Assembly (NCBI GenBank): GCA_041746975.1
Contig: JBGTGB010000058.1
Span: 3,855-67,854 of the forward strand
From: Haliea sp.
Lineage (GTDB): Bacteria > Pseudomonadota > Gammaproteobacteria > Pseudomonadales > Halieaceae
Length of the DNA: 64,000 nt
Direction: 5' to 3'
The position numbers were made by a program, and so were the translations under genes. Under the pieces are notes generated by a model. The model had not been told where the DNA came from and searched no databases. It saw only the letters and a program-made list of their open reading frames with translations. Below, one piece after another: positions 1,291 through 8,285 of this stretch. Numbering within the stretch: the first letter of the stretch is position 1; the number at the start of each line of letters is the position of its first letter.

Positions 1291-1316
1291 CAATTTTCAA
1301 ATCACGGGGCTAGTTG

Positions 1317-2804
1317 ATGGACAAGGCGACGATCGTCGTGATCACCCTCGTTGTATACAAGGCGCTGCTGATCGGCATCGGATTCTGGGCGTCACGCCGC
1401 ACCCGGGATGCTGACGACTTTTTCCTGGGCGGTCGCGGTCTCGGCCCGCTGGTCGCTGCGATCAGCTACTCCTCCAGTGCCTCGTCGGCCTGGACCCTGC
1501 TGGGCATGAGCGGGCTCGCCTACGTAGTCGGGGTGTCTGCCCTGTGGCTGGTGGCGGGGTCCATTCTCGGCATGCTGGTGGCATGGTACTGGATCGGTCC
1601 GCGCCTGTGGCACTTCAGTCGCCAGCACGACCACATGACCCTGACTGATCTTATCCTCCACGACAGCAGTGGCCGGCTGCGTAGCCTGATTTTGTGGACG
1701 GCATCGATGATCGTGCTGGTCTCGTTTCTGCTCTACATCGCTGCCCAATTCCAGGGCGCCGGCAATACTTTCGCCACTACCTTTGATCTCTCCATGAGCC
1801 AGAGTATTGCCATCGGCGGCGCCATCATCATGGTCTACACCCTGTTGGGCGGTTTCTGGGCGGTCAGCGTCACGGACACCCTGCAGGGGCTGTTGATGGC
1901 AGTCACCGCCGTGCTGTTGCCGCTGGCGGCGCTGGTCGCCGTGGGCGGACCGGCCGGGTTCTGGCAGGGCCTGCTGGAGGTCAGCTCGCCGCAGCAGTTG
2001 AGCCTGACCGCCGGCAACAGTGGGCTGCTGGCCCTGGGAACAGTGGTGGGTGGTCTCGCCATTGGCATGGGCACTTTTGGCCAGCCGCACCTGCTGGTGC
2101 GCTTCATGGCGCTGCGGGATGAACGCGCGCTGCGCCAGGCCCGGCATATCACTATCGCCTGGTATCTGGTGGTGTTCCTCGGCATGTGTTTCCTGGGGCT
2201 CGTGGGCCATATTCTCGAGCGCGATGTCGCCAACCCGGAAACTATTTTTTTCGTGCTCACCGAGAGCCTGTTCCCCCCGGTATTGGGCGCCATCCTGCTG
2301 GCGGCGGTACTTTCGGCGATCATGTCCACTGCCGACAGCCAGCTGTTGGTAGCGGGGAGTGTAATCGCCCACGACCTCGGCCTGGGTGAGCGTCACCCGG
2401 CGCGCATGATGCTGGTGAGCAGGCTCACCATCGTAGTCCTGGTCGTATTGGCGGTGCTGGTGGCCATTTATCTACCACAGCAGATTTTCAGCCGGGTCTT
2501 GTTCGCCTGGATTGCACTGGGTTCGGCTTTTGGACCGCTGGTGTTTGTACGTCTCGCGGGCCTGCGCGTCGCTCCGCTGGGCGTGCTGCTCTCCATTGGC
2601 AGCGGCTTCGGCCTGGCGGTTGCGCTGTCACTCCTGCCTGACACCCCCGGGGACATCGCCGAGCGCCTGCTGCCATTCTGCGTGGCCCTGGCGATCCTGT
2701 TGCTCTGGCGACTACCCGCGCACGCAGTCAGAGCCTCGCAAGATCCTCCTGCCAGCCCGACAGCAGGGGGAACTGTTGGTCCGGAGCGCGCTCCCCCGGG
2801 CTGA
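1317..2804 (+). CDS. Sodium:solute symporter (SSS, PutP-like)
   Basis: Many TM helices; DFFLGGRGLGP, SAWTLLG, GGFWAVSVTDTLQG, GQPHLLVRFMA, AAVLSAIMSTADSQLL motifs; ATG at 1317 preferred to TTG at 1314. Confidence 0.9.
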   Translation: MDKATIVVITLVVYKALLIGIGFWASRRTRDADDFFLGGRGLGPLVAAISYSSSASSAWTLLGMSGLAYVVGVSALWLVAGSILGMLVAWYWIGPRLWHFSRQHDHMTLTDLILHDSSGRLRSLILWTASMIVLVSFLLYIAAQFQGAGNTFATTFDLSMSQSIAIGGAIIMVYTLLGGFWAVSVTDTLQGLLMAVTAVLLPLAALVAVGGPAGFWQGLLEVSSPQQLSLTAGNSGLLALGTVVGGLAIGMGTFGQPHLLVRFMALRDERALRQARHITIAWYLVVFLGMCFLGLVGHILERDVANPETIFFVLTESLFPPVLGAILLAAVLSAIMSTADSQLLVAGSVIAHDLGLGERHPARMMLVSRLTIVVLVVLAVLVAIYLPQQIFSRVLFAWIALGSAFGPLVFVRLAGLRVAPLGVLLSIGSGFGLAVALSLLPDTPGDIAERLLPFCVALAILLLWRLPAHAVRASQDPPASPTAGGTVGPERAPPG

Positions 2805-3486
2805 TGCCGGCGCGCTGCAGGCAGTGCCAGGCGAGACAGAGATTCGAGGTCAGGACCGGTTTTCCGGTCAGGGCCTGGAGGGCGACAATGCTGCGCAGCC
2901 CGGGCATTCCGGTGCCGGTTATGACCAGCACATCGGCTTCGACCTTGCGCCAGCGCGCGCTGAGGAAAGGTATCGCCGTGCTGCTATCAAGCTGGTAGAT
3001 ACTGCGGGTATCGCTTGCATTTGGCTGCAGGCTATCGGCGCGCAGGATCTCGTAGCCGGCGTCGCTCCAGTAGTCCAGCGCATGGCTGAGCAGCCACGCC
3101 GGGTAGGGGCAGGCGAGAGCGATGCGGCGCGCGCCCAAGACCTTGAGCGCTGCGTGGATGGCCTCCGCCGCAGTGCAGACCGGTACGCCGCCCGCGCTCT
3201 GCAGGTCCTTGAGCAGTTTCTGCTCCCGACCCCTGGGCAGGAGATAGCTGGAGGCAGTACAGGCAAAGCCCAGGACATTGAGGGCCAGGGTGTCGAAGCT
3301 GGCAAGAGCCGCGGGCAGTTGCTCGATGTAGTCAATGAAGCGCTGTTGCGGTTCGCCGCTGCTCACGAGGCGGGTGCTGTGCATGCCCACCCCCGCCGGC
3401 AGCAGGAGGCGCAGCTCTGGTTCAACCGTCGGGTTGGCTTGTGGCGTGGCGATGCCAATGCTGCCTTTGCGTCCGTATTCGGGCAT
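2728..3486 (-). CDS. Maleate cis-trans isomerase / arylmalonate decarboxylase / Asp-Glu racemase fold protein
   Basis: IGIATPQANPTVEPE, FACTASSY, RRIALACPYP, KPVLTSNLCLAW; second catalytic Cys site reads ITGTGMP; 3' end overlaps the symporter by 77 bp. Confidence 0.85.
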   Translation of the reverse strand: MPEYGRKGSIGIATPQANPTVEPELRLLLPAGVGMHSTRLVSSGEPQQRFIDYIEQLPAALASFDTLALNVLGFACTASSYLLPRGREQKLLKDLQSAGGVPVCTAAEAIHAALKVLGARRIALACPYPAWLLSHALDYWSDAGYEILRADSLQPNASDTRSIYQLDSSTAIPFLSARWRKVEADVLVITGTGMPGLRSIVALQALTGKPVLTSNLCLAWHCLQRAGISPGERAPDQQFPLLSGWQEDLARL

Positions 3487-3620
3487 GGTGTCGTGAGTCG
3501 AGTGTATTTTTGTAGACTATTGTCCCAAAAAGTGTGTGGGTCAAGCATGGACTGGATTGGATTATACGGGTTGGAGCGTGGAGCGCACATGGCCGGCCCG
3601 GCAGCAGCGGGGGCGCGAGC

Positions 3621-4829
3621 ATGTTAGGACCAGGCGCTAGACCAATACCGGTGCTTGTTGTCGGTGCCGGCCCGGTAGGACTGACTGCGGCTGCGCTGCT
3701 GGTGCAAGCGGGCGTGCCGGTGCGAGTGGTGGAACGTGAACGGGACCTGCCGGAGGATATGCGCGCCTCCACGTTCCATCCGGCAACCCTGGAAATCATT
3801 GACCGCCTGGGACTGGCCCGGCCGCTGCTGGAAGAGGGCACGGTGGTGTCGCGCTGGCAGTATCTGGTACACGGCTCGCAGCAGCGCGCGGTTTTTGACA
3901 TGGGAGTGCTGGCCGAATGCACGGGCTTTCCGTTTCGCCTCCAGTGCGAGCAGTTTCGCCTCACCCGCCTGCTGCTAGCCAGGCTGCAGAGCAGCCCCCT
4001 GTTCACGATTCAGTTCGGCTGCGAACTGGTCGGCGTGCAGCCGGGCGAGGCAGACGTAGAAGTAGCGCTTGGATCCGACCGAGAGAGTGAGCGAGTCCGC
4101 TGCCGCTGGCTGCTGGCCTGTGACGGGGGTCGCAGTACGGTGCGTAAACAGCTGGGATTGGCCTTCGAGGGCATGCAGTTTCCCAAGACCTCGATCACCC
4201 TGGTGGTCAGGCACCCCTTTCAGGACCAGTGGCCGGATCTGCTCGGCGTGAACTACGTCTGGACTGACAGCGCCCACTATAGCCTGATGCAGTTGCGCGA
4301 CCTGTGGCGTTTGTCCTATTCACCCCGGCCAGACCAGTCCATCGCCGAGGCGCTGGCGCCGGAGGCTGCGCAGGCACAGCTGCAGGCGCTGTTCCCTGCC
4401 GCCCGGCCCTATGAATTGTTGCAGCGCAATTACTACACCTTGCAGCAACGCTGCCTGGACTCATTCGTCGTCGGCCGGGTGCTGTTTGCCGGCGATGCCG
4501 CACATCTTAACAGCCCGGCCGGCGGTATGGGGATGAACAGCGGCATCCACGATGCCCAGTGCCTGGTTGAGCACCTGCTCCCGGTGCTGGCGGGAAAGGA
4601 CCCGGCCCATCTGCAGCGTTACGATCGTCGCCGGCGAACCATCGCGCTGGAGGAAGTGCAGCGACTGTCGGCCCGCAATTATGCTCGCCACCGGGAGACC
4701 GATCCGGCGCGGCGGGCTGAAATCTGGCGGGAGCTGCAGGCCACCGCCGATAATCCCGGGCGCCAGCTCGATTACCTGATGGACTCCTCAATGTTGCGTT
4801 CCCTGGAGCGTGAACGCAGTATCGACTGA
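3621..4829 (+). CDS. FAD-dependent monooxygenase (MhpA/PheA-like aromatic hydroxylase family)
   Basis: VLVVGAGPVGL, LLACDGGRSTVRK, FAGDAAHLNSPAGGMGMNSGIHDA fingerprints; start set at ATG 3621. Confidence 0.9.
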   Translation: MLGPGARPIPVLVVGAGPVGLTAAALLVQAGVPVRVVERERDLPEDMRASTFHPATLEIIDRLGLARPLLEEGTVVSRWQYLVHGSQQRAVFDMGVLAECTGFPFRLQCEQFRLTRLLLARLQSSPLFTIQFGCELVGVQPGEADVEVALGSDRESERVRCRWLLACDGGRSTVRKQLGLAFEGMQFPKTSITLVVRHPFQDQWPDLLGVNYVWTDSAHYSLMQLRDLWRLSYSPRPDQSIAEALAPEAAQAQLQALFPAARPYELLQRNYYTLQQRCLDSFVVGRVLFAGDAAHLNSPAGGMGMNSGIHDAQCLVEHLLPVLAGKDPAHLQRYDRRRRTIALEEVQRLSARNYARHRETDPARRAEIWRELQATADNPGRQLDYLMDSSMLRSLERERSID

Positions 4830-4843
4830 TTACCGGAGGCTAT

Positions 4844-6400
4844 ATGGAATCACTACAGCAACTCCTGGCCCGTGCTCCCTGCGCGATTCCAGACCCGGTT
4901 ACCAGTCGTATCGACGGCGCGCTGGTACCGCCAGACACTGCTGCCGCTACCCTGCCGATCACGTATCCCGGGACCGCGGAAGTGGTGACGCAGTTGCAGG
5001 TAGCGGATGCTGCCGAGGTCGGGCGCGCGGTCGCCGCTGCCCGCGCCAGTTTTGCCAGCGGTGTCTGGGCGGGAATGGCCGTTGCCGAGCGCCAGCGGGT
5101 TCTGCGCAAGGGCCAGCAGCTGTTGCAGGAGCACAGCGCGACCCTGGCCTTCCTCGAATGCCTGGCTGCGGGGCTGCCGATGGTGCATCTGCAGTCGCGT
5201 CAGGTGCCACGGGCGGCGGAGAATTTCGGTTTCTTCGCTGAATTCATTGGTCAGCAGGCGGGCGAGAGCTTTGAGCAGATGCCCGGCTACCTGACCACTG
5301 TCACCCGCCAGCCCGCGGGGGTCGCGGCCCTGCTGGCGCCCTGGAACGCGCCGCTGGCGCTGGCTTCCATGCAGCTCGCCTCCTGCATCGCTTTTGGTAA
5401 CAGCTGTGTGCTCAAGCCTTCCGAATACACGCCACTGTCAATTGGCTATATGGTGGATTTGCTGGAACAGGCAGGCCTTCCGCCGGGCGTAATCAACGTG
5501 GTTAACGGGCCGGGTGCGGTGACCGGTGCGGCACTGGTGGCGCACCCGGATATCGACCGCATCGCTTTCACCGGCGGGACGGCCACGGCTCGCGCAATCA
5601 TGGCGGCCGCTGCGCCCAGGCTGGTGCCTCTGCATCTGGAGCTCGGCGGCAAGTCGGCGAATATAGTCTTTGACGACGCCGATCTCGAGCAGGCGCTGGA
5701 CGGTTCACTTATCAACATATTCGCCAATAACGGCCAGATCTGTATCGCCGGCTCGCGCATCCTGGTGCAGCGCGGCATTGCCGATCGCTTCATACCGGCC
5801 TTTGTCGAGCGTGCGCGCCATATTCGCGTGGGCGATCCGATGGACCCGGACTCGGAAATGGGGCCGCTGGCGTTTGCCGCCCACTTGCAGCGGGTGCAGG
5901 AGCACATTGCCGGTGCCCTGGCCGATGGGGCGCGGCTGCTGGTGGGCGGCGCAGGCCTGCCCGAACTGGGCGCTGGCTACTTTCTGCAGCCGACAGTGTT
6001 GCAGGTAGAGTCCAATGCCCTGCCTATCTGTCAGCGGGAAGTGTTTGGGCCGGTCGCCACCATACAGCTGTTCGACCGGGGCGAAGAGGCGTTCAGTATC
6101 GCCAATGACAGTGAATTTGGCCTGGTTGCCTATGTCTGGACCGATTCGCTGCAACGCACCCTCGCCGCTCAGCAGCGCCTGGAGGTGGGCACAGTGTGGG
6201 TCAACACTCCGCTGGCGCGCGATCTACGGGCGCCTTTCGGCGGCTTCAAGCAGTCGGGCATGGGCCGCGATGGTCCGCGGCAGTGCGCGGAGTTTTATAC
6301 CGAAGAAAAGGCCACGATTGTCGCCCGCGGGCGGGTGCCCATGCCGCGCCTGGGTGCGGGGGGCGTGGATATCAGTGCAAGGGATCCTGGAGCTGATTAA
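4844..6400 (+). CDS. Aldehyde dehydrogenase, 2-hydroxymuconate/2-aminomuconate semialdehyde dehydrogenase-like
   Basis: PWNAP, FTGGTAT, LELGGKSA (Glu), NGQICIAGSR (Cys), REVFGPV, APFGGFKQSGMGRDG; QVPRAAENFGFFA resembles HpaE/XylG types. Confidence 0.9.
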   Translation: MESLQQLLARAPCAIPDPVTSRIDGALVPPDTAAATLPITYPGTAEVVTQLQVADAAEVGRAVAAARASFASGVWAGMAVAERQRVLRKGQQLLQEHSATLAFLECLAAGLPMVHLQSRQVPRAAENFGFFAEFIGQQAGESFEQMPGYLTTVTRQPAGVAALLAPWNAPLALASMQLASCIAFGNSCVLKPSEYTPLSIGYMVDLLEQAGLPPGVINVVNGPGAVTGAALVAHPDIDRIAFTGGTATARAIMAAAAPRLVPLHLELGGKSANIVFDDADLEQALDGSLINIFANNGQICIAGSRILVQRGIADRFIPAFVERARHIRVGDPMDPDSEMGPLAFAAHLQRVQEHIAGALADGARLLVGGAGLPELGAGYFLQPTVLQVESNALPICQREVFGPVATIQLFDRGEEAFSIANDSEFGLVAYVWTDSLQRTLAAQQRLEVGTVWVNTPLARDLRAPFGGFKQSGMGRDGPRQCAEFYTEEKATIVARGRVPMPRLGAGGVDISARDPGAD

Positions 6401-6938
6401 GCTCAACCACAAAGCCGTCGGGATCCTGCACCACGCTGACCATGACCCGGATCTCGCTGCTACCATCGTAGGAAGGGTAGGATACCAGGGAGGGCTCGCT
6501 CAGTACCGTGACTCCCTCGAGGGTAGTCGCTTTGGCAAAGCTCGTTTCCAGCTCATCGCTGTTGAATACCAGGACTACGGTGCCACGCTTGAAAGCGGCG
6601 TCCGTGAGGTCCACTTTCTCGACCTCGGGGCGCACGTACTGCAGCAGTCCGACAATGCCGACGTAGTCGTCGTTGGCGCGCAGAAACACCAGCCGCCGCA
6701 CCCGTTCCGCATCTTCGTTGCTGGCCCCGGCGGGGGTGTTCACCATGTTGTCGTAGATGACCCGCATCCCCAGCGCGTCACGATAGAAGGCCAGTGACGC
6801 CTCGACATCGTTTACCACCAGGGTGGTGCGACGCAGGTCGATTGCAGTTCGCTGGTCTTCCGCCACGGGCGCCGCCGCTGCCGCTAAGGGCAGCCAGAGC
6901 GCGACGGCCAGCAAGGCACTCAGGAAAGGTGTGTGCAT
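6372..6938 (-). CDS. VOC/glyoxalase family protein with signal peptide
   Basis: TTLVVNDVEASLAFYRDALGM and VQDPDGFVVELNQ; hydrophobic N-terminus ending in AAAAA. Confidence 0.8.
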   Translation of the reverse strand: MHTPFLSALLAVALWLPLAAAAAPVAEDQRTAIDLRRTTLVVNDVEASLAFYRDALGMRVIYDNMVNTPAGASNEDAERVRRLVFLRANDDYVGIVGLLQYVRPEVEKVDLTDAAFKRGTVVLVFNSDELETSFAKATTLEGVTVLSEPSLVSYPSYDGSSEIRVMVSVVQDPDGFVVELNQLQDPLH

Positions 6939-6989: not shown

Positions 6990-7865
6990 TTACTCGGATT
7001 TGCGACCGTCGATGATCTTCTTCATATAGGTCCAGGAGGTCTCGTTGCGGCGCGGGTCATCGCCCGCGGGTGGGCTGGTGTACTCCGGATAGTTGGTGGC
7101 GATCTCGTTCTTCATCAGCTCCGAGAGTTGGTCATAGCTTTCCAGCTTGCGACCCATGGCGTTGAAGTACAGCAGGCCACTGCGGTTACCCATCTCCATC
7201 CAGGGCAGCCACTGCGAGATCCGGACCCAGGATACGACGGGATACTCGACATCGATGGCCGGATCCAGCAGTGCAGCGGTGCTGCCGTTGAAGTCGAAAA
7301 TCTCGGTCGCGTGGTAAGTGCCGCCAACGTACTGCTGATAATCCCCGGCGAGTGGGTTGGTGTAGAACAGCGGTATCTCCATGCGCATAAGGTATTGGCC
7401 GTTCATGTCTTCGAGATTGAATGTGCGCTCTTCTCCGCTGGGTGTCCTGCCGTAGCTGGTGTGGTTGACTGGATCATTGGCGACGTGAATCACCTCGTTG
7501 CTGGCACCGGTCCAGGGATTCTCGAAGGTGCGCATGACCTCGTTGGTCTCCGGATCGAGATACAGCATGATCTCCCGGGACACCAGTCTGTAACCCTTGC
7601 CCAGCTGCGGGTCACTGACTTCCAGGCACTGGCGGATGTTCATGCCGTCGAGGTTGAAGACAAGCTTGTCGCGTTCCCCGGGCACCCGGGCATAGGCGCG
7701 CCCGAACCACTGGAATACCTGGGGATCGTTGTCCTTGAGGGAACACTGCACCTTGCGGTTCAGCTGGATGTAGCCGTCGGCTGTATTGGGGTCTATCTGT
7801 TCAGCGCTGGCGGAGCAGACGAGCAGGGCGCCGAGCCCGGCTGCGAGAAGTTGGCGAATATGCAT
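6990..7865 (-). CDS. DUF1838-like exported protein
   Basis: Signal peptide (LLAAGLGALLVCSASA); WFGRAYARVPGERDKLVFNLDGMN, NPWTG, HVANDPVN, WLPWMEMG resemble DUF1838 as I recall it. Confidence 0.7.
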   Translation of the reverse strand: MHIRQLLAAGLGALLVCSASAEQIDPNTADGYIQLNRKVQCSLKDNDPQVFQWFGRAYARVPGERDKLVFNLDGMNIRQCLEVSDPQLGKGYRLVSREIMLYLDPETNEVMRTFENPWTGASNEVIHVANDPVNHTSYGRTPSGEERTFNLEDMNGQYLMRMEIPLFYTNPLAGDYQQYVGGTYHATEIFDFNGSTAALLDPAIDVEYPVVSWVRISQWLPWMEMGNRSGLLYFNAMGRKLESYDQLSELMKNEIATNYPEYTSPPAGDDPRRNETSWTYMKKIIDGRKSE

Positions 7866-7970: not shown

Positions 7971-8285
7971 ATGGCAGCCTATATGGTGGTCGAGGCAGAA
8001 ATTGAGCAGCCTCAGGGGTTTGCGGCCTATGCGAGAGCGGTGCCGGCGCTGGTGGCGGAATACGGTGGCGAGTATCTTGTGCTCGGCGGAGAGGCGGAGT
8101 CTCTGGAAGGGGATTGGGGTGGCGTCCGGCTGGTGCTGCACCGCTGGCCCGACCGCGACACGGCCCGCCGCTTCTGGCACTCTCCCGAATACCGGGAACT
8201 CAAGCGCCTGCGCGAGGGAACCGGCACCTTTCGTGTTATGTTGCTTGAGGGGCTGGAGCGAGAAGTGCTGGAGAACGCGCCATGA
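7971..8285 (+). CDS. DUF1330 domain protein
   Basis: AYMVVE...FAAYARAVPALVAEYGGEYLVLGG...LEGDW...FWHSPEYRELKRLR; AGGAG RBS at 7961. Confidence 0.85.
   Translation: MAAYMVVEAEIEQPQGFAAYARAVPALVAEYGGEYLVLGGEAESLEGDWGGVRLVLHRWPDRDTARRFWHSPEYRELKRLREGTGTFRVMLLEGLEREVLENAP

Follow-up and report, generated by a model that had tools for sequence, protein, structure and literature searches.

The 64,000-nucleotide stretch of DNA analyzed here (hereafter, the window) comes from Haliea sp. (assembly GCA_041746975.1, contig JBGTGB010000058.1, positions 3,855 to 67,854 of the forward strand). Close to its start lies a gene for a protein, here denoted P0001, of the maleate isomerase (MI)/arylmalonate decarboxylase (AMDase) fold. 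The gene is monocistronic and stands between a convergent symporter gene and a divergent gene for a flavin monooxygenase, beyond which an aldehyde dehydrogenase and several further proteins are encoded (Table 1). P0001 is an intact member of a large one-cysteine branch of this fold within the Pfam family PF17645, in which the first catalytic-loop cysteine is kept and the second is replaced by glycine. The Asp/Glu racemase fold is the textbook case of two-cysteine, two-face catalysis, and AMDase is its known one-cysteine exception.

No signal peptide was seen in P0001, which is predicted from its sequence to be a cytoplasmic, cofactor-free enzyme. A longer plus-strand open reading frame (ORF), at positions 2512-3627, spans the entire gene on the opposite strand and gave no family match.

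Table 1. Coordinates (in the window) of P0001, of its principal residues and of the neighboring genes
Feature	Coordinates	Strand	Remarks
P0001, one-cysteine MI/AMDase-fold protein, 252 aa	2728..3486	-	PF17645 (Amdase), 2.8e-17
Q16-A17-N18, first-strand loop	3433..3441	-	Asn18 = Nocardia farcinica MI Asn14
Cys76 codon (TGT), first catalytic-loop cysteine in GFACTASS	3259..3261	-	Aligns with N. farcinica MI Cys76
Tyr128 of the P-Y-P motif	3103..3105	-	= MI Tyr133, AMDase Tyr126; invariant
D159-T160-R161-S162-I163-Y164	2995..3012	-	Thr160 replaces MI Asn163; Thr160 and Tyr164 family-specific
T190-G191-T192-G193-M194-P195, second catalytic loop, within VITGTGMPG	2902..2919	-	Gly191 replaces the second Cys, Gly193 replaces Asn
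Gly191 codon (GGC)	2914..2916	-	Column of the second Cys in two-cysteine relatives
Cys217 codon (TGT) in SNLCLAW	2836..2838	-	In neither canonical loop; 79/81 locus rows have Cys
Sodium:solute symporter (PutP-like), convergent	1314..2804	+	PF00474, 6.3e-63
PnpA/HspB-like class A flavin monooxygenase, divergent from the P0001 gene	3621..4829	+	PF01494, 3.7e-62
Aldehyde dehydrogenase, 15 bp downstream of the monooxygenase	4844..6400	+	PF00171, 8.7e-150
Small VOC/glyoxalase-fold protein	6372..6938	-	PF00903, 1.6e-10; 70% identical counterpart in related locus L005
DUF1838 protein, hydrophobic signal-peptide-like N-terminus	6990..7865	-	PF08894, 3.6e-73; in 25 clade A loci
Nitrilase-superfamily (CN_hydrolase) protein	8282..9337	+	PF00795, 1.2e-33; in 10/80 loci, those nearest the window

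Fold and catalytic loops

Against the PF17645 model, P0001 scores 63.6 bits, above the gathering cut-off of 25.9. Its AlphaFold (AF2) model, built on an alignment of 59 homologs, has a mean predicted local distance difference test (pLDDT) value of 96.8, and Foldseek matches this model with probability 1.00 to both MI and AMDase. The template modeling (TM) scores are 0.80-0.83 for the maleate isomerase of Pseudomonas putida S16 (Iso; 4fq5/4fq7), about 0.76 for N. farcinica MI (2xec/2xed) and 0.80 for AMDase (3dg9/3ixl). Sequence matches in the Protein Data Bank (PDB) include MI 4fq5 (8e-13), the third-best hit 4ix1 (1.4e-10) and AMDase 3ixl (5e-5); identity to the characterized maleate isomerases is only 22-24%. 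The racemase fold proposed in the initial annotation of this DNA is thus borne out by the family match, the model and the structural comparison, and the two codons that it singled out, a cysteine in FACTA and a glycine in ITGTGMP, are confirmed as Cys76 and Gly191.

Residue numbers were checked against chain 2xed (chain index minus 22). Apart from the correspondences in Table 1, Arg39 of P0001 is equivalent to Arg39 of N. farcinica MI, and Cys76 also aligns with the first cysteine of S16 Iso. Gly191 corresponds to MI residue 194 within one position, an uncertainty that arises because the ISxCVQMP loop of both characterized isomerases is one residue longer. Comparison with two-cysteine relatives is ungapped: three Cys/Cys proteins and 60 members of another two-cysteine subfamily have S-C-T-N-[LF]-[PA] in the second loop, against [TS]-G-T-G-[ML]-P here, so that two changes, Cys to Gly and Asn to Gly, set P0001 apart. 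The counterparts of the dioxyanion-hole residues (Thr77, Ser79/Ser80, Tyr128 and Thr192-Gly193) are conserved at matching motifs in a sequence-level comparison. Asn18 is invariant in the homolog alignment, and Cys76, the dioxyanion hole and about 25 further residues count among the invariant positions.

A homolog search over 5.8 billion proteins yielded 1124 relatives, the best 120 of which (41-61% identity) were used for residue counts. Cys76 is present in 118/120 of these and Thr192 in 119, and both Gly191 and Gly193 are found in all 120, in agreement with the earlier claim that P0001 is not a conventional isomerase. An alignment of 81 locus rows (80 loci from species-level genomes plus the window) gives the same picture, with Cys76 in 80/81 and Gly191 in 81/81. 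In a maximum-likelihood tree of 84 rows, the branch that parts the one-cysteine family from the two-cysteine proteins has a Shimodaira-Hasegawa-like approximate likelihood ratio (SH-aLRT) support of 99; given the length of the outgroup rows and a stray row that groups with them, the rooting is indicative only. An exhaustive HMMER search of representatives clustered at 50% identity retrieved 2730 relatives. Among the 134 near-full-length top matches that were examined, 104 have the Cys/Gly combination, three are Cys/Cys, and 23 have the second-site glycine together with I, H, V, M, N, T, S, L or A in place of the first cysteine. The Cys/Gly pattern is therefore a trait of the whole family rather than a chance feature of one sequence.

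Family-specific residues and Cys217

Compared to its two-cysteine relatives, the family has gained invariant Gln16, Arg49, Tyr53, Tyr81, Pro129, Thr160 and Tyr164 as well as a C-terminal L-x-x-G-W motif. The two-cysteine relatives have Ser, Ala or Arg in the column of Gln16, and both N. farcinica MI and the two-cysteine subfamily have Gly in the column of Tyr164. Arg161, invariant here, is shared with the sampled two-cysteine subfamily; the same column holds Thr in N. farcinica MI and Leu in S16 Iso. Of the residues Asn14, Tyr133 and Asn163, which we take to be the defining maleate-binding trio of MI, the first two are kept as Asn18 and Tyr128, and the third is replaced.

The family also has a further cysteine, Cys217, in the first turn of the helix that follows the last strand. 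It is found in 104 of the best 120 homologs, below the 118 that have Cys76. All five solved relatives that were aligned have alanine at this position, as do 56/60 and 3/3 two-cysteine relatives (59/63 in total). Among the wider relatives with Gly191, 65% have Cys217, 9% (11/125) have a cysteine at 214 instead, and 27% have neither. Position 109, which is pseudo-symmetric to 217 and lies beside the Cys76 loop, is alanine in both the one-cysteine and the two-cysteine groups. Cys217 could be a relocated second thiol or, equally, could compensate for the volume lost in the change from Cys to Gly. Owing to Cys217, a further thiol near the second site, which the initial annotation named as a ground for refuting its reading, may be present.

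Gene neighborhood in the window

The P0001 and monooxygenase genes diverge from an AT-rich region of ~135 bp (3487-3620) that contains a single sigma-70-like match, at 3544-3516 of the minus strand. Although the monooxygenase ORF extends back to a GTG at 3534, translation probably begins at the ATG at 3621, which immediately precedes the GxGxxG motif and gives the ~400 aa of its homologs. On the other side, the 3' ends of the P0001 and symporter genes overlap by 77 bp (2728-2804); the corresponding overlaps are 46 bp in the related locus L001 and 17 bp in L002. The best NCBIfam model for the aldehyde dehydrogenase, which recurs in 28 of the 80 related loci, is HpaE, at 484 bits, below the 638-bit cut-off. 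For neither the VOC protein nor the DUF1838 protein was an informative solved relative found; the latter, probably periplasmic to judge by its N-terminus, has a mean column identity of 74% across 18 loci. Farther downstream are a PrpR-like activator and a pair consisting of a family III CoA-transferase and an HMGL-type lyase.

The monooxygenase matches PnpA (PDB 6ain, 2e-46) and HspB (7da9, 4e-38). These two enzymes hydroxylate their substrates para to an existing hydroxyl and expel a substituent; the products are para-diol rings, whose cleavage yields maleyl compounds. In the nic2 cluster of P. putida S16, hspB comes with an ORF of unassigned function and iso, after which lie nfo, hpo and ami (PMC3332521). 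Being homologs of HspB and Iso, the two divergent gene products of the window parallel the hspB-iso combination of that cluster. The homarine operon homABCDER (PMC13236597), which was considered given the marine host, contains no member of the MI/AMDase fold.

Related loci fall into three context clades

A pattern scan of species-representative genomes located 386 loci, of which 80 were analyzed and assigned to context clades by clustering of the neighboring ORFs combined with the tree. Clade A, which includes the window, is hosted by Halieaceae/Luminiphilus, Lysobacterales and others. Its neighborhood comprises a TonB receptor, an aldehyde dehydrogenase, a PnpA/HspB-like monooxygenase, the one-cysteine gene, a symporter, a cytochrome c, a flavin amine oxidase and a DUF1838 protein, often joined by an alpha/beta hydrolase, a FAD_binding_4 dehydrogenase, a nitrilase-fold protein, a LeuCD-like hydro-lyase and an enone reductase, or by an FghA/FrmA formaldehyde pair. 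The PnpA/HspB-like monooxygenase gene is adjacent to the one-cysteine gene throughout this clade. In L012, L015, L020 and other Luminiphilus/Halieaceae loci, genes for an S-formylglutathione-hydrolase-like esterase and a class III zinc alcohol dehydrogenase lie ~3-5 kb downstream of the one-cysteine gene; this apparent formaldehyde detoxification pair at the edge of the cluster hints that a methyl group of the substrate is removed oxidatively. The amine oxidase of related loci does not demonstrate a nicotine-like substrate: the enzyme is generic, with L-amino-acid and monoamine oxidases as its nearest relatives and NicA2 at only 2e-18.

Clade B, from Rhodospirillaceae, combines the one-cysteine gene with a DUF3089 protein, two beta-lactamase-fold hydrolases, an HsaA-like oxygenase, an aldo-keto reductase and an MFS transporter. 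The sole match to a fusion of the one-cysteine domain with the aldo-keto reductase (P0388) was discarded as two adjacent genes, as shown by a frameshifted tail and an internal twin-arginine signal peptide; with this signal peptide of its own, the clade B reductase is probably periplasmic.

Clade C, from Alcaligenaceae and Bradyrhizobia, is a tight operon of the one-cysteine gene, TctC, a 550-aa PRK06126/RebC-like monooxygenase, a NicF-like (maleamate amidase-like) isochorismatase-fold hydrolase (3ot4, 2e-29), a PuuE-like ring amidohydrolase (3cl6, 4e-29) and, in addition, a LysR regulator. This set of genes suggests an undescribed pathway for an N-heterocycle or a cyclic imide. Such an operon is found in Pigmentiphaga litoralis (L038:9941-16018), with similar ones in L041, L050, L054 and L055, and the strains are cultivable and well suited to genetic work. 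The count of 43/81 loci with a flavin monooxygenase lumps the ~400-aa PnpA/HspB-like proteins of clade A with the ~550-aa PRK06126/RebC-like proteins of clade C and does not refer to a single ortholog.

Three loci labeled Nitrosopumilus, Marinimicrobia and Chthoniobacteraceae (L006, L027 and L074, respectively) contain proteobacterial-type clusters and are nested in proteobacterial clades of the tree; the respective contigs are probably mis-binned in metagenome-assembled genomes.

Across the three context clades, Asp159, Thr160, Arg161 and Tyr164 are invariant or nearly so. The family-specific residues Gln16, Arg49, Tyr53, Tyr81 and Pro129 and the L-x-x-G-W motif are likewise shared by all three clades. 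These unchanged pocket residues point to one common small substrate or moiety.

Related genes elsewhere in the same genome

The genome of the window encodes a second PF17645 protein (L085:1489-2235), 26% identical to P0001. Its gene overlaps by 8 nt the end of a gene for a monooxygenase that is 30% identical to the one in the window, and the contig ends inside this monooxygenase gene (L085:1489-2833). The combination of a monooxygenase with an isomerase-like protein is thus a duplicated module. The amine oxidase/cytochrome c pair typical of clade A is absent next to the P0001 gene in this genome. On contig C401 of the same genome (L094, 940-5316), however, a GlcD-like FAD_binding_4 dehydrogenase gene is followed by LeuC-like and LeuD-like genes, and the three products are 59, 61 and 53% identical, respectively, to those of the L005 cluster; part of the clade A complement is therefore located on another small contig of this fragmented assembly. 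Two further LeuCD-like paralogs are present in the genome (L095 and L096).

Candidate functions of P0001

Several established identities were rejected. The AMDase (EC 4.1.1.76) equivalog NF052327 gives 53.1 bits against a cut-off of 225, and EutA (TIGR02990) gives 63.6 bits against 318, with no eutBCDE-type neighbors. For the Asp/Glu, hydantoin and allantoin racemases (PF01177), the score is 19.9 bits against 31, the second cysteine is absent, and the TM scores are 0.48-0.67. A survey of the literature on DUF1838, on the clade C gene combination and on AMDase-family catabolic genes found no characterized member of the one-cysteine family, and the ESM Atlas returned the same family names only.

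The reading that we favor, at a probability of roughly one in three, is that P0001 is a C=C isomerase acting on a maleyl-type acid (a cis-enedioate, an enone or a half-amide) by thiol addition through Cys76. We infer this class of substrate, the reaction and the role of Cys76 because Cys76, the dioxyanion hole and Asn18, Arg39 and Tyr128 are all kept, and because relatives of the neighboring gene products make or consume maleyl-type compounds. The neighbor types with such relatives are the para-hydroxylating monooxygenases, the NicF-type maleamate amidase, the LeuCD-type hydro-lyases and the enone reductase; the maleate hydratase HbzIJ is of the LeuCD type. Under this scenario, a maleyl-type intermediate would arise downstream of the neighboring PnpA/HspB-like monooxygenase and bind with a carboxylate in the dioxyanion hole (Thr77, Ser79/80, Tyr128 and the Thr192-Gly193 backbone), its further anionic or carbonyl groups being held by Asn18, Arg39, Arg49 and Thr160/Arg161. 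The only loop thiol, Cys76, would act from one face of the substrate: addition of the thiolate to the double bond would give an enolate, bound in the dioxyanion hole, that rotates before the thiol leaves, so that a second proton donor would not be needed. The second face would be opened by Gly191 and Gly193 and re-lined by Thr160, Arg161 and Tyr164. Glutathione plays a comparable thiol role in maleylpyruvate and maleylacetoacetate isomerases.

Several observations weigh against such an isomerase. Loss of Cys194 in N. farcinica MI gives a trapped adduct rather than turnover, so an enzyme with Cys76 only would have to rely on a further base or on a substrate that is more strongly activated. Among the wider 50%-identity representatives that keep the G-T-G loop, about 18% have no cysteine at 76, which means that the thiol is not universal in the superclade. 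The family has a near-invariant further cysteine, Cys217, and both catalytic sites lack a cysteine in the paralog of P0001 that is encoded next to the related monooxygenase. As for the genomic context, no gene of the window is recognizable as coding for a dioxygenase that cleaves rings of a known para-diol type (the VOC protein matched no close solved structure), and the clade B neighborhood of esterases, an HsaA-like oxygenase and an aldo-keto reductase carries no hint of maleyl chemistry.

A possible but more tentative assignment is a one-base proton-shift isomerase, that is, a tautomerase or delta-isomerase, in which Cys76 would abstract a proton alpha to the carboxylate in the dioxyanion hole and, from that same face, give it back at a position two carbons away. 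The candidates include the conversion of itaconate to citraconate or mesaconate, an allylic shift between cis- and trans-aconitate, and the enol-keto conversion of a ring-fission product. Shifts of this 1,3 type normally require one base, as in PrpF, aconitate isomerase, 4-OT and KSI, which would explain why a family descended from two-base enzymes lost its second cysteine. Three conserved arginines (39, 49 and 161) fit a di- or tricarboxylate, and the His that replaces Cys76 in a few distant relatives would suit a base better than a nucleophile. The LeuCD-like hydro-lyases of the related loci and of contig C401 point in the same direction, as does the similarity of the aldehyde dehydrogenase to HpaE, in whose pathway a tautomerase step follows. 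The CoA-transferase and HMGL-type lyase under the PrpR-like activator just downstream could be added to this list; the link is weak, however, given that this unit has its own sigma-54 regulator and is present in 0/80 related loci. Furthermore, the closest characterized relatives of P0001 use thiol addition.

We consider it unlikely that P0001 is a two-thiol enzyme, an isomerase or racemase of the usual two-base kind whose loop has been rebuilt and in which Cys217 provides the second acid/base from a new position. The near-complete conservation of Cys217 in the family, against alanine in the solved and two-cysteine relatives, would be accounted for in this way, as would the alanine at the pseudo-symmetric position 109 in both groups and the Cys214 of some Ala217 relatives, one helical turn away. 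By fold topology, moreover, the strand before residue 217 should neighbor the strand before residue 191. Yet Cys217 is less well conserved than Cys76, 27% of the wider Gly191 representatives have no cysteine at positions 213-218, no compensating pattern is seen where Cys76 is lost, and the change may simply fill the volume vacated by the cysteine-to-glycine replacement.

Engineering of AMDase offers another perspective. An (S)-selective AMDase variant carries G74C/C188G (bioRxiv 10.64898/2026.01.14.699310), and a cysteine at position 74 was found in 0/58 natural AMDases surveyed (PMC4996985). P0001 might be a natural version of this "cysteine on the other face" design, with stereo-inverted protonation after decarboxylation, a one-base 1,3-proton shift or thiol addition opposite the face used by AMDase, and with Cys217 perhaps as a relocated second thiol; we regard this broader proposal as quite improbable.

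There is little to recommend a racemase or epimerase acting on a chiral acid or a ring intermediate, in which Cys76 would serve one face and either water, Tyr164 or Tyr81 the opposite one. The family-specific invariant tyrosines would be in keeping with such an enzyme, and in clade C the gene is accompanied by those for a flavin hydroxylase and a PuuE-like ring amidohydrolase, by analogy with the HpxO-PuuE-allantoin racemase logic, in which a racemase takes part in a ring-opening pathway. Nothing, however, puts a tyrosine at the second site, the PF01177 score falls short of its threshold, and the hydantoin and allantoin racemases are distant by fold (TM 0.53-0.67).

The initial annotation called P0001 a mirror image of AMDase. 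The residue pattern stands, as it is that of the engineered G74C/C188G variant, and the equivalog score and, under an approximate mapping, the remaining pocket argue against AMDase-like decarboxylation. A natural mirror-image AMDase, which would decarboxylate a substituted malonate or a beta-keto acid and protonate the enediolate through Cys76 from the face opposite that of AMDase, would retain the dioxyanion-hole residues, as P0001 does, and the P-Y motif matches the A125P change of improved (S)-variants. The AMDase match is nevertheless weaker than that to MI and spans only residues 69-228, the C-terminal two-thirds of P0001, and the N-terminal loop, P-Q-A-N, is isomerase-like. AMDase drives the leaving carboxylate out into a hydrophobic pocket (Leu40, Val43, Tyr48, Val156 and Met159, partly cited), and hydrogen bonds to the leaving carboxylate block decarboxylation (PMC12576825). 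In an approximate mapping by HMMER-range offset (query 69-228, chain 67-225), which covers the C-terminal pocket residues, Val156 and Met159 fall on Ser158-Asp159 and Arg161-Ser162, which are polar or charged, and the conserved arginines and asparagine of P0001 would retain a second carboxylate instead of driving it out. An opposite-face decarboxylase or hydrolase, also suggested initially, is thus not supported: P0001 is nearer to MI than to AMDase, scores 53 against 225 bits and keeps the MI-type Asn18, Arg39 and Tyr128. With these polar residues kept, Arg49, Arg161, Tyr53, Tyr81 and Tyr164 added, and neighbors that indicate oxidative ring catabolism, a mirror-image decarboxylase appears highly improbable. 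A search with NF052327 of five Alcaligenaceae/Comamonadaceae genomes gave sub-threshold relatives only, one of them with two cysteines and one of the Gly/Cys SCTN type.

Finally, a non-catalytic accessory partner of the monooxygenase, engaged in substrate binding or delivery or in product capture, would fit the conserved and duplicated monooxygenase-isomerase-like pair and the cysteine-less paralog whose gene overlaps that of its monooxygenase, but is the least credible option, given that the invariant Cys76, the dioxyanion hole and the about 25 further residues are typical of an active enzyme and that no such monooxygenase is encoded next to the family gene in clade B.

Significance

The family described here is a second, much larger natural one-cysteine branch of the fold, with the opposite cysteine kept, and encompasses no fewer than about 100 clusters at the 50% identity level, as well as 386 loci in species-representative genomes. 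Current annotation names its members "maleate isomerase" or "arylmalonate decarboxylase". The hosts are abundant marine and freshwater bacteria (Halieaceae/Luminiphilus and Rhodospirillaceae) and soil Alcaligenaceae, in which the gene resides in conserved catabolic islands. Neither the fold nor the likely reaction class nor the catabolic role comes as a surprise; the chemistry is relevant to biocatalysis. Assignment of the reaction would open at least three undescribed pathways, and natural scaffolds with the cysteine at the first site may offer a better point of departure for (S)-selective protonation than AMDase mutants with an inverted arrangement. If Cys217 is indeed a relocated thiol, it would be a case of active-site residue migration.

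Comparison with known systems

The natural AMDase of Bordetella bronchiseptica (3dg9/3ip8) shares with P0001 the fold, membership in PF17645, a single loop cysteine and the dioxyanion hole (Thr75, Ser76, Tyr126 and the Gly189 backbone). It differs in having the reverse order, Gly74 at the first site and the sole catalytic cysteine, Cys188, at the second, and in its hydrophobic carboxylate-expelling pocket, where P0001 has polar or charged residues under the approximate mapping given above. The engineered G74C/C188G enzyme has the same Cys/Gly arrangement as P0001, and the solved variant 3ixl is G74C/C188S. To our knowledge, the natural substrate of AMDase is still unknown.

OPAG_01669 of Rhodococcus opacus (4ix1), a structural-genomics protein, resembles P0001 in fold (TM 0.75-0.80) and in the glycine at the second site, but lacks the first cysteine too (VGQVGTPFS) and has alanine at position 217.

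The two-cysteine SCTN relatives, annotated as members of the decarboxylase/maleate isomerase family (for example, L087:1444-2232 of P. litoralis), share with P0001 the ungapped loops F-A-C-T and S-x-T-x-[LM]-P, the P-Y and S-S-N motifs and Trp220. They differ in having Cys191, Asn193 and Ala217 in place of Gly, Gly and Cys and in lacking Arg49, Tyr53, Tyr81 and Tyr164. The two forms co-occur in the same genomes; P. litoralis has both and, accordingly, they are probably not redundant.

The maleate isomerases (EC 5.2.1.1), represented by N. farcinica MI and S16 Iso, have the same fold (TM 0.76-0.83 overall), are the best sequence match of P0001 among solved structures, and share with it the first cysteine, Asn14, Arg39, Tyr133 and an E-x-E motif; like the P0001 gene, S16 iso adjoins a gene for an HspB-type monooxygenase. 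Their second cysteine (Cys194 in N. farcinica MI, Cys200 in Iso) is glycine here, the asparagine that follows the second cysteine in SCTN-type relatives is Gly193, and MI Asn163 is the invariant Thr160, followed by the invariant Arg161. Invariant Arg49, Tyr53, Tyr81, Tyr164, Cys217 and the C-terminal L-x-x-G-W motif are additions of P0001. By its title, PDB entry 2xed is a Cys194 mutant of N. farcinica MI with a covalently bound succinylcysteine intermediate; the modified residue is presumably Cys76. Judged by its residues, P0001 is not a canonical maleate isomerase and could not work as a conventional two-cysteine isomerase. Among known systems, it would nonetheless be most like maleate isomerase in its likely mode of working, albeit without two of the defining features of that enzyme, the second cysteine and Asn163.

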